Assembly (NCBI GenBank): GCA_902476355.1
Contig: CABSCS010000004.1
Location: 10,085 to 74,084, forward strand
From: an uncultured Eubacteriales bacterium
GTDB taxonomy: Bacteria; Bacillota; Clostridia; Christensenellales; UBA1242
Reading direction: 5' to 3'
Length of the DNA stretch: 64,000 bases
Below are positions 24,561-39,935 of this stretch, piece after piece; position 1 is the first letter of the stretch; the number at the start of each line of letters is the position of its first letter. The notes under the pieces were generated by a model. The model was not told the origin of the DNA. It made no database searches and saw only the letters and a program-made list of their open reading frames with translations. The position numbers were made by a program, and so were the translations under genes.

Positions 24561-24978
24561 GCGTTTTTCCTCGTTGCGAAAATTATAACATTTTTAATCT
24601 TTCTCCCCAAACAATTTACCAATCAAATTTCTTTTTGTACATTTTGTAAGAAAAAAAACAAAAACGCTAACCAATAAAAAAACAACCACCAGTTAAATGG
24701 TGGATGCATTTTAAATTAAAGTGTCCTCATCTTCATTTTTTAATTATTTCACAATTTCATCATACATTTTAAATGTTGATTTTTTGTTTTCTGTTTAATT
24801 TATCAAGATATATAACTTAACAGACAGCCGATAATTGAAGAGGGACACTTTTTTTATATTTGATTTTTTTATGTTTTTGTTTGTTTTATTTATTTTATCT
24901 GCATCTTATAAAAGTGCATGTCACCGTTTGTGTTCTCTTGACTTTTAAACAATAAAGTGTTATCTTATTTTCAGTTCC

Positions 24979-25018
24979 GACCCCGTAGTAAAATGGATAT
25001 TACAGAAACCTCCTAAGT
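24979..25018 (+). pseudogene. 5' half of a disrupted native tRNA-Arg(CCU) (acceptor, D-arm, anticodon 5' stem and loop)
   Basis: GACCCCG TA GTAA AATGGATA TTAC A GAAAC CTCCTAA GT. It stops pairing after the anticodon loop. The matching 3' half is at 39892-39935. Confidence 0.75.
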
Positions 25019-25142
25019 ACCGACTTGGACAAAATTAAAACCTCTAAACATCTCTAAAACACTGACAATTTGCAAGTAATTCAAACTCGCACAAAACCAA
25101 AGTTCACCAAAAGTTCACCCAAGCACTCAAAAAACTTAATAT

Positions 25143-25219
25143 GTGGATATAGCTCAGCTGGATAGAGCGATCGCCTCCTAAGCGATAGGTCGGCAGTTCA
25201 AATCTGCCTATTCACACCA
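25143..25219 (+). tRNA. tRNA-Arg (anticodon CCT), intact, island-borne
   Basis: GTGGATA TA GCTC AGCTGGATA GAGC G ATCGC CTCCTAA GCGAT AGGTC GGCAG TTCAAAT CTGCC TATTCAC A CCA. All stems pair, with one G-T. Confidence 0.9.
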
Positions 25220-25228
25220 ATTTCAAAG

Positions 25229-25258
25229 AAAAAAGACGCTATTTACGGCGTCTTTTTT
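25229..25258. terminator. bidirectional hairpin terminator
   Basis: AAAAAGACGC-loop-GCGTCTTTTTT between the tRNA 3' end and the stop of the convergent 667-aa gene. Confidence 0.65.
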
Positions 25259-27260
25259 ATAAATCTGTCAAATCAGCGTCATACATCACTTCTAATAATC
25301 GCTTAGCAGTTAGTATCATCGTTTCATAGCTCATAACATTTATTTTATTATTTTCTAATAACGTTAAATCTGCGGGACTATCATGCAGTTGTTTTAAAGC
25401 CTGCGTTCCACAGATAAAATAAGCTTTTACATCATTCGCATTATATATTTCACCCTTTAACTCTTTCATCCTTTGACAAATCGCTTTTCTATATTTAAAT
25501 ATTTGTGAGTTAACTTCATCAGCATCTGGTGCAGAGTATTGAGTCTTCCTTTCCCTTTTTAATTCTATGACTATTGGCAGTCGTTCATCTGAAACCTCTA
25601 TTATTATGTCGGTTCTAACACGATTCGGATCTGAATTATCTATACCTAAATAAGTATACCATTGTTGAGTAAGTAGTGACTTATGATTTTCCCAATGTGG
25701 ACAAATTAACCAAGGATTTTTAGCTAGCAAATTTTCAAACGCACTTTCAACTTCTTTTTTATCCATAAATTCTTTAAGTTTTGCAATTACCGCAAGCTTG
25801 CTTTTTACACTATCTCTTAATCTCAACGAATGATTTATTTCGTTTAAATTAAATATAGCAGAAAAATATTCCAATAACTTCTCATCATCAATAGATTCTT
25901 GCTCGATCAATTTTTGGAATTCTTCATTATTCACTATTTGAATTAATGCCGAAAACAAAAGGTCTGCAAGTTTTTCTTGTTTTTCTATGTTAATTCCAGG
26001 CTGATCAAAAAGGCGTTGGGCAAACTTGTTAAATCTTTTTTTCGATGACTCGTTTAAATTTTCATAATACTTTTTATTTTCTGGTTTTTCTATTACACGT
26101 GTAATGTATTCCTGTTTAGATAAATCTCTATCCGCGCGCATATCATCCCATGCACTAACTATGTTCTTTTTAATATTTTCTAGATAATCTCTCAGTTCAC
26201 TTACTTCAGGTGCATCTAAAAATAATCCCTCTCTACTACTTAATACTACATCTTCATCCAAATCGGCAAGATAATTTGCATTAACTTCCCCAATAATATA
26301 GGCGTCCGCAATTCTATCTTTTTTTGTATTTCTTAGTATATCTTCATCTACAAGTTTACCATTTACATAAATGCTTATCCCTTTTATTGCAACTTCATCG
26401 GATACTTTTAAGTCCGCAGGAATTTCAACAGAAGCCACCCACCCAGTTATACCTTTAGCGAAATCTTCTTCTTTAATTAAATATTTATCTGGTGTGTTGG
26501 GAAAGGTTTCTTTTACCAAATCTTTTTCCACGCCAAAATAGTGTACATTTTCAATTTTTTCATAAAAGAAGTGTTTTGAAAAATCAACGCTAATATTTTG
26601 CCCATCATGAATAATATTGACTTCAAAATTCCCATCATTTAATATTGTTGTTATAGAAAATCTTTGAGATAATAATTTACTTAAAGAATCTAATGTGGAT
26701 TTTGTTATATCTCTTTTTAATTTTGGGAAATAAATAATTGTCCCTGTTGTGATGTCATGGAAATCGTATTCAAATTCTTTACATAAGTCATCTAATGAAT
26801 TTACATATGTCACTGGAATATTTACTTTGGCCTCATCAATTTCTAATAATTGTTTGGCTAATACAATTTTTTTCCAAGTCTCATCAGTGTCACTTTTTGT
26901 AAATAAAACATATTCATCGGCAAGACTAAAAGCAGAAAACTTTCCAATACCTTTTTTACCCATATAAAGTCTTGCTTGCATATCATCTGGTTTTCTAATA
27001 TTAGTATCTTTAGCTTTTCCTGACGTCGCATACCTATTTTGAAATTCCTCATCATTCATTCCTATGCCATTATCTACTATCAACAATGATTTATCTGTAT
27101 AGCATAAATCACATTTTCTTGCATATGCATCCCATGAGTTTGCAACCAACTCAGCAATAGCTGGGGGATTGGTTGTGTATAAATTCCTACCAAAATGTCT
27201 AACCGCACCAAAAGCGATTTGAAATTCTAAATTTGTTAAATGTTCTTTTGAATCTTGCAT
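25257..27260 (-). CDS. GHKL/MORC-like ATPase fused to a C-terminal PD-(D/E)xK nuclease resembling Shedu DUF4263
   Basis: Bergerat-fold boxes AELVANSWDA, DNGIGM, GKKGIGKFSAF. C-terminus NPWLICPHW...RTDIIIEVSDERLPIVIELKR...QIFKYRK. The ATG directly abuts the methyltransferase stop. Confidence 0.65.
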   Translation of the reverse strand: MQDSKEHLTNLEFQIAFGAVRHFGRNLYTTNPPAIAELVANSWDAYARKCDLCYTDKSLLIVDNGIGMNDEEFQNRYATSGKAKDTNIRKPDDMQARLYMGKKGIGKFSAFSLADEYVLFTKSDTDETWKKIVLAKQLLEIDEAKVNIPVTYVNSLDDLCKEFEYDFHDITTGTIIYFPKLKRDITKSTLDSLSKLLSQRFSITTILNDGNFEVNIIHDGQNISVDFSKHFFYEKIENVHYFGVEKDLVKETFPNTPDKYLIKEEDFAKGITGWVASVEIPADLKVSDEVAIKGISIYVNGKLVDEDILRNTKKDRIADAYIIGEVNANYLADLDEDVVLSSREGLFLDAPEVSELRDYLENIKKNIVSAWDDMRADRDLSKQEYITRVIEKPENKKYYENLNESSKKRFNKFAQRLFDQPGINIEKQEKLADLLFSALIQIVNNEEFQKLIEQESIDDEKLLEYFSAIFNLNEINHSLRLRDSVKSKLAVIAKLKEFMDKKEVESAFENLLAKNPWLICPHWENHKSLLTQQWYTYLGIDNSDPNRVRTDIIIEVSDERLPIVIELKRERKTQYSAPDADEVNSQIFKYRKAICQRMKELKGEIYNANDVKAYFICGTQALKQLHDSPADLTLLENNKINVMSYETMILTAKRLLEVMYDADLTDL

Positions 27261-38447: not shown

Positions 38448-38498
38448 ACCTAAACCTTAGGAGGCTTGTGGTCTATCCATTTTATTCTAGGAGATGTT

Positions 38499-38900
38499 AT
38501 GAAAGCAAGATTTGTTTGCAAAATGCCTGATGCGAGACTTGTGCGCAATGCTATCGATCGCAAAGAAGGACAAATTCACGAGTATGTAGTTGAAAGGACT
38601 ATTTATCTTTCAAAGGAAAAGTTTATACACTTTAGAAGTCATTTGCTAGATGACAATGATGAACTCATTAATTACAGAAATGATATGTTTGTTGATGAAA
38701 ATAAAGTATGGCACGTCTTGATGTTTTGCTCAATGATTTCAGATATTATGCTCCTGGTATACATCGATAGTGAAGATTATACCAAATATGTTTCTATAAT
38801 TTCAAATGGAGGTGAAAAAATTGAACCACGTTTTACAATTAGTAAGAGATACACTAGAAAACGAGAAAATCAGTGCAGAAGAACAACTGCAATTAAATAA
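38499..38900 (+). CDS. hypothetical protein; 3' end uncertain because it overlaps the next gene by about 80 nt
   Basis: AGGAG RBS. The tail after ...SNGGEK is basic and low-complexity and is probably out of frame. Confidence 0.4.
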   Translation: MKARFVCKMPDARLVRNAIDRKEGQIHEYVVERTIYLSKEKFIHFRSHLLDDNDELINYRNDMFVDENKVWHVLMFCSMISDIMLLVYIDSEDYTKYVSIISNGGEKIEPRFTISKRYTRKRENQCRRTTAIK

Positions 38901-39063
38901 AATATGCGAACTTGAAGACAAATTCGTGAAAGATTTTTCAAAAGAAAAATGGCGAGAATATTTTGATTTAGACATAGAAAAAGGTCAACTTGTAAACCTA
39001 CAAATTGACCATGTTGTTGAGATTACATATAACATTTGTAAAAAGTTATTTCAGCCCCAATAA
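38821..39063 (+). CDS. small hypothetical protein (80 aa from TTG, 85 aa from ATG 38806)
   Basis: GGAGGTG lies 8 nt before the TTG. Helical sequence paralogous to 38214-38447. Confidence 0.45.
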   Translation: MNHVLQLVRDTLENEKISAEEQLQLNKICELEDKFVKDFSKEKWREYFDLDIEKGQLVNLQIDHVVEITYNICKKLFQPQ

Positions 39064-39070
39064 AATTTGG

Positions 39071-39661
39071 TTATTTTTCTTGTTTGGATCTTATATTACT
39101 TACTAACTTAGGGAAATCATCTATTAATGGCATTTGTGGCGGAGGATCTTCGTTTTCTAATTCAAAAATCTTACAAAGCATATTGTATGCAGTATCTAGC
39201 CATTTATCTATTTCATCTAAATCAGATCTCTCAATAGATGGCACTTCTTCGCCATCTTCTTTAAATGCTTTTTTATCTAAATGAGCTAACATCATATCTC
39301 TTGTTGGTCTTAATTTCTCTACAAAGGAATTTATTAATTCTAATTGTTGTTTTGCATTAAGGATAAATTTATGCAATGTGCTATTTTTCTTTTTTTGCTG
39401 TTCACATTGATTTAATAGCTTAGGTAAACTTGCAGAACTAGAATGATCAAATATTTTCAAAAACCCCACGATAACTTTATATTCAAAAGAACTTATTACT
39501 TCACTGAAAAAACTAGGGCTTATATTCATAATATCAATGTTTTCTTTTGCTGAATCAATGAAATTTTTGTATTGGAAATTCGCGCGTTTTATTGATTCTA
39601 CCTCGTATGCTATTAAAGAAACAAGTTTTAAGTATTCATCTAAATTATCCCACTCTGTCAT
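39071..39661 (-). CDS. stand-alone HEPN-like (AbiU2-like?) protein
   Basis: All-helical, 196 aa, with RPTRDMMLAHLD (R-x5-H). Last gene before the island's right end. Confidence 0.45.
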   Translation of the reverse strand: MTEWDNLDEYLKLVSLIAYEVESIKRANFQYKNFIDSAKENIDIMNISPSFFSEVISSFEYKVIVGFLKIFDHSSSASLPKLLNQCEQQKKKNSTLHKFILNAKQQLELINSFVEKLRPTRDMMLAHLDKKAFKEDGEEVPSIERSDLDEIDKWLDTAYNMLCKIFELENEDPPPQMPLIDDFPKLVSNIRSKQEK

Positions 39662-39891
39662 TACGTTACTCCTTTATACTAACTTCATTATATCATAAAA
39701 ATGTTGAAAATTCACCCAAACCATAAAATTTTGAAAAAGTACACCATTTGTGCACCGTAGATTTCAAAGGTTTTGTGTTTAGAAGGCAAAAGTTAGACAA
39801 ATTAGTGAGAATAATACACAATTTTAAGTATATTTTTCAAAATAATTGCGATTTTTGATATTAAATAGATTAAAATTATAATTTTCTATTG

Positions 39892-39935
39892 CTCCTAAGT
39901 TTCAGTTCCGTGTTCGACTCACGGCGGAGTCACCA
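39892..39935 (+). pseudogene. 3' half of the disrupted native tRNA-Arg(CCU)
   Basis: CTCCTAA GTTTC AGTT CCGTG TTCGACT CACGG CGGAGTC A CCA. Complements the 5' half at 24979-25018. Confidence 0.75.

Follow-up and report, generated by a model that had tools for sequence, protein, structure and literature searches.

Genomic islands that target tRNA genes follow a textbook rule, in that they carry a partial copy of the tRNA and use it to rebuild the gene that they enter. One class of tRNA integration sites, reportedly set apart by Williams in 2002, is sublocated in the anticodon loop. Islander (PMC4383910) catalogues islands and prophages whose tyrosine integrases insert them into tRNA genes. In Anabaena variabilis, a 37-kb excision element with a tyrosine recombinase lies in a tRNA-Cys gene and is proposed to cross over in the anticodon loop; upstream of the complete gene stands a 38-bp 5′ fragment from a different element (bioRxiv 10.64898/2025.12.09.693284). 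Phages and integrative conjugative elements (ICEs) can also accrete in tandem at one tRNA or tmRNA gene (PMC13651849). Here we describe an island of 14,873 bp (positions 25019–39891) within a 64,000-nucleotide stretch of contig CABSCS010000004.1 from an uncultured Eubacteriales bacterium, hereafter ‘the window’. The island splits a tRNA-Arg(CCU) gene and contains a complete tRNA-Arg(CCU) gene of its own. We consider it, with a probability of about 0.85, to be a decayed representative of a family of integrative defence islands that is widespread in gut Clostridia, splits tRNA-Arg(CCU) and brings a complete replacement.

The locus resembles Islander-type islands in the involvement of a tyrosine integrase (in the window, a remnant of one), its tRNA-gene target, a putative crossover in the 7-nt anticodon loop, a short flanking direct repeat and a displaced tRNA fragment at one end, but differs in that a separate, complete tRNA gene replaces the target. 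With the Anabaena element it shares the proposed loop crossover, the tyrosine recombinase and the upstream 5′ fragment; that element, however, carries a partial tRNA copy that yields a chimeric functional gene, whereas the window island makes no chimera. As in phage–ICE tandems, several elements gather at one tRNA locus via related integrases. Tandem elements lie side by side, whereas the island family is nested, with the newcomer inside its predecessor’s tRNA, so that 5′ halves recur as a ladder with a 165-nt step and right junctions bear 3′ halves of the island type. The tRNA genes of phages and other elements offer another parallel, since here too the element supplies a tRNA and its own genes are enriched in the cognate codon, but the island tRNA has the target’s anticodon, lies at a fixed distance from the core in an attachment (att) arm and would substitute for the destroyed gene. 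The arms conserved around the core (a P arm of ~190 bp and a P′ arm of ~124 bp), 7-bp motifs spaced 11 bp apart and a long integrase (PF14659) recall a lambda-type attP, although the family is without evident symmetric core-type sites and the arm-site role of its motifs is a candidate one. In Nanoarchaeum equitans, too, tRNA halves are separated at the anticodon loop; here, in contrast, the split is a by-product of insertion, without complementary joining sequences and with decaying halves. A full-text literature search, with subscription papers partly outside its reach, returned only the canonical restoring mechanism, and no replacement tRNA in an att arm or ladder of 5′ halves. As far as we found, tRNA-targeted integration by disruption and replacement, with nested defence islands as its product, is an undescribed variant.

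A split native gene and a complete island tRNA

The 5′ half of the native tRNA-Arg(CCU) gene (nucleotides 1–40 of 75; 24979–25018, + strand) ends in the 9-bp sequence CTCCTAAGT (25010–25018), the attL copy of the core, and the displaced 3′ half (39892–39935, + strand) opens with the attR copy (39892–39900). These are the only two copies of CTCCTAAGT in the 64 kb, against 0.13 expected by chance. When 24979–25018 is joined to 39901–39935, ARAGORN calls the resulting 75 nt tRNA-Arg(cct), with perfect D, anticodon and T stems and a single mismatch, C4:A69. The initial annotation had placed both halves at these coordinates and described the same stems and mismatch, and in this it was right. Rfam found no tRNA match in the isolated halves, as expected for internal fragments. 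The promoter and strong terminator that the initial annotation had proposed are also there: a TTGACT-17-TATCTT site with TG before the −10 (24938–24966, + strand), kept in empty and occupied conspecific loci, and a terminator at 39945–39964 (+ strand). Once the island is inserted, this promoter-like site faces the 5′ half, followed by the left arm and the island tRNA.

Neither the sequence that continues from attL, ACCGACTTGG, nor that which precedes attR, TTCTATTG, is tRNA-like, and at neither junction does a partial tRNA copy regenerate the target, as it does under the Islander definition. The other Islander hallmark, an island inside a tRNA gene and bounded by a direct repeat, is present in the form of the 9-bp CTCCTAAGT repeat and an exact join of the flanks at the empty site. 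Identity between attP and target amounts to 8–9 bp.

Conspecific loci were found in human-gut metagenome contigs via the flanking thymidine kinase gene tdk (23982–24560), and they occur in two states. In five contigs (L004, L005, L006, L008 and L009) the whole island is missing and the flanks join exactly at the core, so that tdk and the right-flank genes for 82-aa and 349-aa proteins are connected through an intact 75-nt tRNA-Arg(CCT); in L004 this tRNA scores 60.5 bits against Rfam RF00005 (gathering score 29). In five others (L001, L002, L003, L007 and L010) the same 5′ half and core are followed by island sequence. Counting similar places too, about nine contigs are occupied and six are empty. 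The initial annotation had suggested searching metagenomes for such an empty site and had read the repeat as a crossover core duplicated on insertion; these contigs agree with that reading, CTCCTAAG(T) being duplicated at exactly the point where the empty-site flanks meet. Its interpretation of the mismatch as drift holds as well. At the empty site the tRNA reads CGGGGTC and its acceptor stem is fully paired, and G69 is still present in the occupied loci L015, L017 and L107, so A69 in the window is derived; with a U in the variable loop, it is one of two derived changes in the displaced 3′ half.

The initial annotation had also stated that the gene was not restored. That is correct for the native gene, which is rebuilt at neither junction, but the simple loss of function that this implies does not hold, as an intact tRNA gene inside the island had been missed. 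This complete tRNA-Arg(CCU) of 77 nt, with encoded CCA (25143–25219, + strand; ARAGORN; Rfam 68.6 bits over 25143–25216), lies 124 nt inside the left junction and is unrelated to the native tRNA in sequence outside the anticodon loop. It is followed by an intrinsic terminator hairpin (25231–25256, + strand; free energy −12 kcal/mol, z −4.47) and a U-run. All five occupied conspecific loci have the 77-nt tRNA, despite differences in cargo, and the five empty ones lack it. Divergence from the window begins right after the island tRNA terminator in L003 and after the integrase remnant in L007; because conspecific cargo differs only beyond these points, the arm, tRNA and terminator form the constant left module of the island.

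Twelve distinct island tRNAs can be aligned without gaps, and every one of the 252 paired cells (252/252) forms a standard pair. At 11 of the 21 pairs both sides have changed, a result that no shuffle equalled (0/500). Variation falls in the acceptor and T stems; the D arm does not vary, nor does most of the anticodon arm. Selection on the island tRNA is purifying, holding its structure under strict constraint.

An 11-mer, TTTCAGTTCCG, is found both in the 5′ leader of the native tRNA (24969–24979, + strand) and, in this strain, at the start of the displaced 3′ half (39900–39910). The initial annotation had noted both copies and suggested a relic of an earlier recombination event, for which we found no support. 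The upstream copy sits in every empty and occupied conspecific locus and therefore predates the island. As the functional tRNA, like occupied locus L107, has TTTCAGTCCCG instead, the ancestral match was 10/11, a level reached by 2.1% of shuffles (0.18% for the exact 11-mer), and the 11-mer is missing from related host tRNAs of other species. We regard it as weak evidence, either chance or an old relic, with no part in the mechanism.

Nested insertions across gut Clostridia

A scan of GTDB, with one genome per species and the left junction CTCCTAAGTAYCGACYTG as query, returned 54 loci, of which 47 had a tRNA-Arg(CCT) 5′ half and 7 were chance matches in unrelated bacteria without one. The 47 family loci come from metagenome-assembled genomes of uncultured Clostridia, Christensenellaceae, Eubacteriales or Lachnospiraceae, sampled from the guts of humans, mice, rabbits, goats, yaks and deer. 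Their common left junction consists of a 5′ half, CTCCTAAG, the conserved 124-nt arm and a complete tRNA: about 165 nt past the core, each locus has either an intact 77-nt tRNA-Arg(CCT) or a further 5′ half and left arm. The core-to-core distance is fixed at ~165 nt, and everything beyond the terminator is variable. Upstream of the window-type arm stand 40 distinct 5′ halves with only the loop in common; the shared block, C32–G39, would place the site in the anticodon-loop class.

Stacks of two or three 5′ halves occur at 14 loci, and their inner halves are of the island type. Genomes that bear stacks include those with the contigs CAKVLP010000001.1 (706 kb), CATZIR010000036.1 and CAMYXB010000013.1. 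In L080, for example, the order is host half, arm, GCAGCCG-type half, arm and intact GTGGATA-type tRNA. In these stacks, a split tRNA-Arg(CCT) also precedes the arms of at least ten other families, which in turn lead to tRNA-Arg(CCT) or its 5′ half; arms of other families come after a 5′ half and CTCCTAAG in L024, L026, L028, L029, L033, L035, L047, L049, L054, L058, L066, L068, L069, L074 and L077. In three of these loci (L049, L054 and L066), we observed that the tRNA carried by the element has a 5′ half nearly identical to the half that the element split.

The right end of the islands reads (A)TTTTCYATTG followed by the core, and in some loci the 3′ half beyond it matches the 5′ partner. 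Complete elements with matching halves at both ends are the window island, L055 (6.7 kb) and L099/L101 (12 kb), the last with an intact, 66% identical integrase. At five loci (L062, L098, L109, L119 and L120) the right junction carries an island-type 3′ half, which in L119 is exactly that of the window’s island tRNA. Because right junctions carry such halves, islands of this family use as their insertion site the tRNA that a previous island brought in.

Two arrangements were seen in passing. In L062 (CAKVOE010000002.1, original positions ~3490–7000) the right junction with an island-type 3′ half is inverted; 3.3 kb away is a left junction with the same type of tRNA, and a tRNA-Met lies between the two. 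This arrangement is either an inversion between att sites or a misassembly. L099, L100 and L101 (+ strand, near 1645, 708 and 1641, respectively) each have a hybrid anticodon-arm fragment, GGATAGAACAACGCC-CTCCTAAG-CGATAG, within the element and on the opposite strand.

Attachment arms, integrase and cargo

The left (P′) arm (25019–25142, + strand), aligned in 53 variants, is conserved, poor in G (A56 C32 G10 T26) and unstructured (free energy −6.4 kcal/mol, z −0.05), and no promoter-like or terminator-like site was found within its 124 nt. A promoter scan likewise returned no promoter of the island tRNA’s own between core and tRNA. TTCACC-17-TAATAT was considered and rejected: it matches at only 8/12 positions and abuts G1, and its start would fall inside the tRNA. 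Conserved in the left-arm alignment is a pair of direct repeats, GTTCACC-N4-GTTCACC (25102–25119, + strand), which are candidate arm-type integrase sites.

The right (P) arm (39700–39891, + strand) is conserved in ten other right ends, including its final TTCTATTG. It has a CACC-type site (39711–39717), paired repeats GTACACC-N4-GTGCACC (39739–39756) and an outward promoter-like site, TTGATA-16-TATAAT (39855–39882; 11/12). Such outward sites are found in both right-arm types (10/12 in L114; TTGAGA-17-TATAAT, 11/12, in L055). The pattern GTDCACC-N4-GTDCACC has just two occurrences in the window, one per island arm, against 0.00 expected, and in six window-type right arms the repeat pair lies exactly 153 nt before the core, with a third CACC site ~35 nt further out. 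These features would amount to a lambda-type attP of ~320 bp with candidate arm sites.

What remains of the window’s tyrosine integrase gene (28313–28945, − strand; PF00589, 1.4e-17, in the open reading frame (ORF) 28313–28855) is the C-terminal ~180 codons, in which the catalytic R, HxxR and Y are present (GIRRGE, HSLRHT and DFYSH in translation). The N-terminal ~280 codons and neighbouring genes are deleted, similarity to L001 ending near 28945. As its integrase copy is a C-terminal remnant, the window island cannot move itself; it is decayed and no longer self-mobile. The 5′ part of the gene has given way to a non-coding stretch, which has GTGTGACAC/GTGTGATAC repeats at 29380–29440. C-terminal-only remnants were seen repeatedly in independent elements (the window, L034, L036, L041, L055, L056 and L062).

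In L001 the gene keeps its full 463 codons, interrupted by a single in-frame stop. Genetic code 4, in which TGA is Trp, was rejected as an explanation of this stop on sequence grounds alone, since all large ORFs are intact under table 11. Integrase homologues number 680 proteins at E ≤ 1e-20, many of them 463 aa long, among them P0001 (96% identical, cluster of 335), and the contexts of intact homologues show the same junctions. The long integrase has extra N-terminal domains (PF14659), and among solved structures 3nkh and Tn1549 Int are its nearest relatives. At the GTDB loci, 1–3 kb lie between the tRNA and the integrase gene, which is on the opposite strand, and nine uninterrupted copies adjoin attL.

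Intact integrases are accompanied by an ORF of 72–79 aa and a protein of ~220 aa. The 72-aa neighbour gave only a sub-threshold match to HTH_17 (excisionase-like). For the ~220-aa neighbour there was no Pfam or NCBIfam match and a weak PHROG match to ‘replication initiation’; its structural model (predicted local distance difference test, pLDDT, 84.6) gave weak winged-helix matches, the best to RepA_N-type Rep 4pql/5kbj (E 0.01–0.03), and we assign it no function, as these matches are too weak.

Neither the window island nor its intact relatives have the make-up of a prophage or ICE. A phage origin was rejected, as IMG/VR holds no close integrase relatives (best match 37% identical). Against phage and plasmid collections, the left arm and tRNA gave generic tRNA matches only, the arm being absent. 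Two attL-pattern matches in viral contigs were chance, without a tRNA half, and two integrase-bearing contigs of 10,461 and 10,464 bp, considered as circles, proved to be unrelated linear fragments. More distant integrases were also seen beside arginine tRNA genes. In L085 and L092 (IMG/VR), ~30%-identical relatives adjoin tRNA-Arg(CCG) and tRNA-Arg(ACG), and in L103–L106 72 nt separate integrase P0096 (49% identical) from an intact 75-nt tRNA-Arg(CCT) downstream of it and on the same strand, an architecture of another kind that possibly restores its target.

The island’s cargo consists mostly of anti-phage systems, as in a defence island, all on the − strand. Next to the left module is a Type II restriction–modification pair (25257–28238; Pfam, PADLOC) of a 667-aa HATPase_c_3-type restriction enzyme (25257–27260; PADLOC REase_II, 7e-39) and a 325-aa C5 cytosine methyltransferase (27261–28238; PADLOC MTase_II, 2e-105). 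A Type I restriction–modification operon (29590–36785) follows, with HsdR (29590–32700), HsdS (33152–34408) and HsdM (35202–36785), together with a 140-aa membrane ORF between HsdR and HsdS and a 267-aa ORF between HsdS and HsdM. The central region of HsdS contains TELTAELTAELTAELTARKQQ, three copies of TAEL, and the contig of L017 breaks inside this repeat; in EcoR124-type enzymes, the copy number of the TAEL tetrapeptide alters spacer specificity. A T5orf172-domain protein (37197–37856; PADLOC candidate defence family PDC-S57, 3.8e-83) and an AbiU2-type HEPN abortive-infection protein (39071–39661; PF18734, 9.6e-16) complete the set. Relatives carry other restriction–modification systems, AbiEii, HamA and AbiTii.

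Host features around the island were also recorded. The intergenic stretch downstream of attR (window 39990–40450; L004 9210–9690) holds many copies of a TGTGCAA...TTGTACATA-like motif, which is host sequence, as empty-site strains have it too. Host tRNA-Arg(ACG) (44710–44786, − strand) and tRNA-Met (46900–46976, + strand) are kept in empty-site strains, and a ribosomal protein L10 leader (RF00557, 82 bits) lies at 62425–62547 (+ strand).

Disruption with replacement: proposed mechanism and alternatives

We propose that the 463-aa tyrosine integrase would recombine attP with any tRNA-Arg(CCU) gene, the sole identity being the 8-bp CTCCTAAG (anticodon loop C32–A38 plus G39), and would catalyse the crossover within it, with the GTDCACC repeats as its probable arm-type binding sites. 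The target would be cut in two and left unrebuilt, and the island would bring its complete tRNA-Arg(CCU) ~125 nt inside the left end, with a terminator behind it. In the integrated form, the island tRNA is predicted to be transcribed by read-through from the target’s promoter across the terminator-free spacer; in the excised form, the outward promoter of the P arm may drive it across the core. Judging by the sequences, the island tRNA would then be both the cell’s tRNA-Arg(CCU) and a fresh attB. The next element would insert into it, giving nested ‘Russian doll’ islands whose 5′ halves stack tightly at the left end while their 3′ halves are scattered along the right side. A need for the loop alone would permit a broad host range.

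Several results weigh against this reading. No inverted core-type sites are obvious around the attP core, and the target stems vary freely. Transfer, packaging or clear replication genes (relaxase, type IV secretion system, capsid or tail) were found in no element by Pfam, PHROG or NCBIfam, and neither an attP junction (right end, core, left end) nor an excised circle turned up in viral or Joint Genome Institute metagenome contigs. A 5′ stack and its matching nested 3′ halves were never on one contig, the two sides coming from different loci. It is also possible, although we think it unlikely, that in this strain the island or its cargo arrived by homologous recombination with a conspecific carrier through the conserved flanks, arms and tRNA, the locus being a recombination hotspot for defence cargo. 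The identical junctions of conspecifics, with cargo that differs from just past the tRNA terminator (L003) or the integrase remnant (L007), would fit this, as would an integrase that is defective in every occupied conspecific locus seen. Such exchange, however, bears on the arrival of this copy and not on the origin of the architecture, and junctions exact at the core, with 40 targets in 47 species, require site-specific events.

Considerably less probable is a reading of the island tRNA as ordinary cargo, comparable to phage tRNAs that match the codon usage of the element itself, in which its closeness to attL has no functional tie to integration. AGG codons do make up 21/3825 of those in island ORFs (25257–39661) against 14/11644 in host ORFs of the window, a 4.6-fold enrichment (Fisher p = 1e-5), and for this reason the tRNA may also serve the island’s own genes. 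But the anticodon is the target’s in every case, and the core-to-core distance is fixed when all beyond the terminator varies; at least ten other left-arm families have the same arrangement, and the island tRNA itself is used as the next target. The two functions are compatible, as one tRNA may serve both island and cell.

That the island simply destroyed tRNA-Arg(CCU) without compensation, leaving another tRNA-Arg to read its codon by wobble, is very improbable. The unrebuilt native gene and the derived changes in its displaced 3′ half would be expected on such a loss, which might be tolerated given the rarity of AGG in host genes (1.2 per 1000 codons), but a complete, structurally constrained tRNA-Arg(CCT) lies 124 nt inside attL and is junction-linked in every family member. 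As for a functional split gene, with halves separately transcribed and joined or paired in trans as in N. equitans, the promoter-like sites upstream of each half (24938–24966 and 39855–39882) leave it a negligible chance, since complementary sequences after the 5′ half or before the 3′ half were not found, conspecifics have an intact gene, a complete replacement gene is present and the 3′ half is gathering changes, including a stem mismatch.

We thus favour disruption with replacement, in which the family departs consistently and widely from the rule that the target is rebuilt. Whether ‘disrupt and replace’ is an undescribed integration strategy, probably of several families, that recognizes little beyond the 8-bp anticodon loop and keeps a portable tRNA in an att arm, we judge to be about evenly balanced. 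If so, the element would be freed from having to match the stems of the host tRNA, which would explain the 40 targets in 47 species, and a mobile element would have a route to an essential-type gene in many species without sequence compatibility. Each integration would swap the promoter of the tRNA and regenerate a standard landing pad on which defence islands pile up nested, and the host would gradually come to depend on the island tRNA. The same process accounts for tRNA 5′ fragments arranged in ladders, which an annotation pipeline would label as pseudogenes. Finders of the Islander kind, which seek a regenerated tRNA and a displaced fragment, would by design miss or mis-delimit such islands. 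The compact integrase and att system, with its 8-bp core and self-renewing landing pad, is suggested as a candidate tool for genome engineering. For the gut Clostridia themselves, the tRNA-Arg(CCU) locus would be a hotspot at which they gather and swap defence systems.

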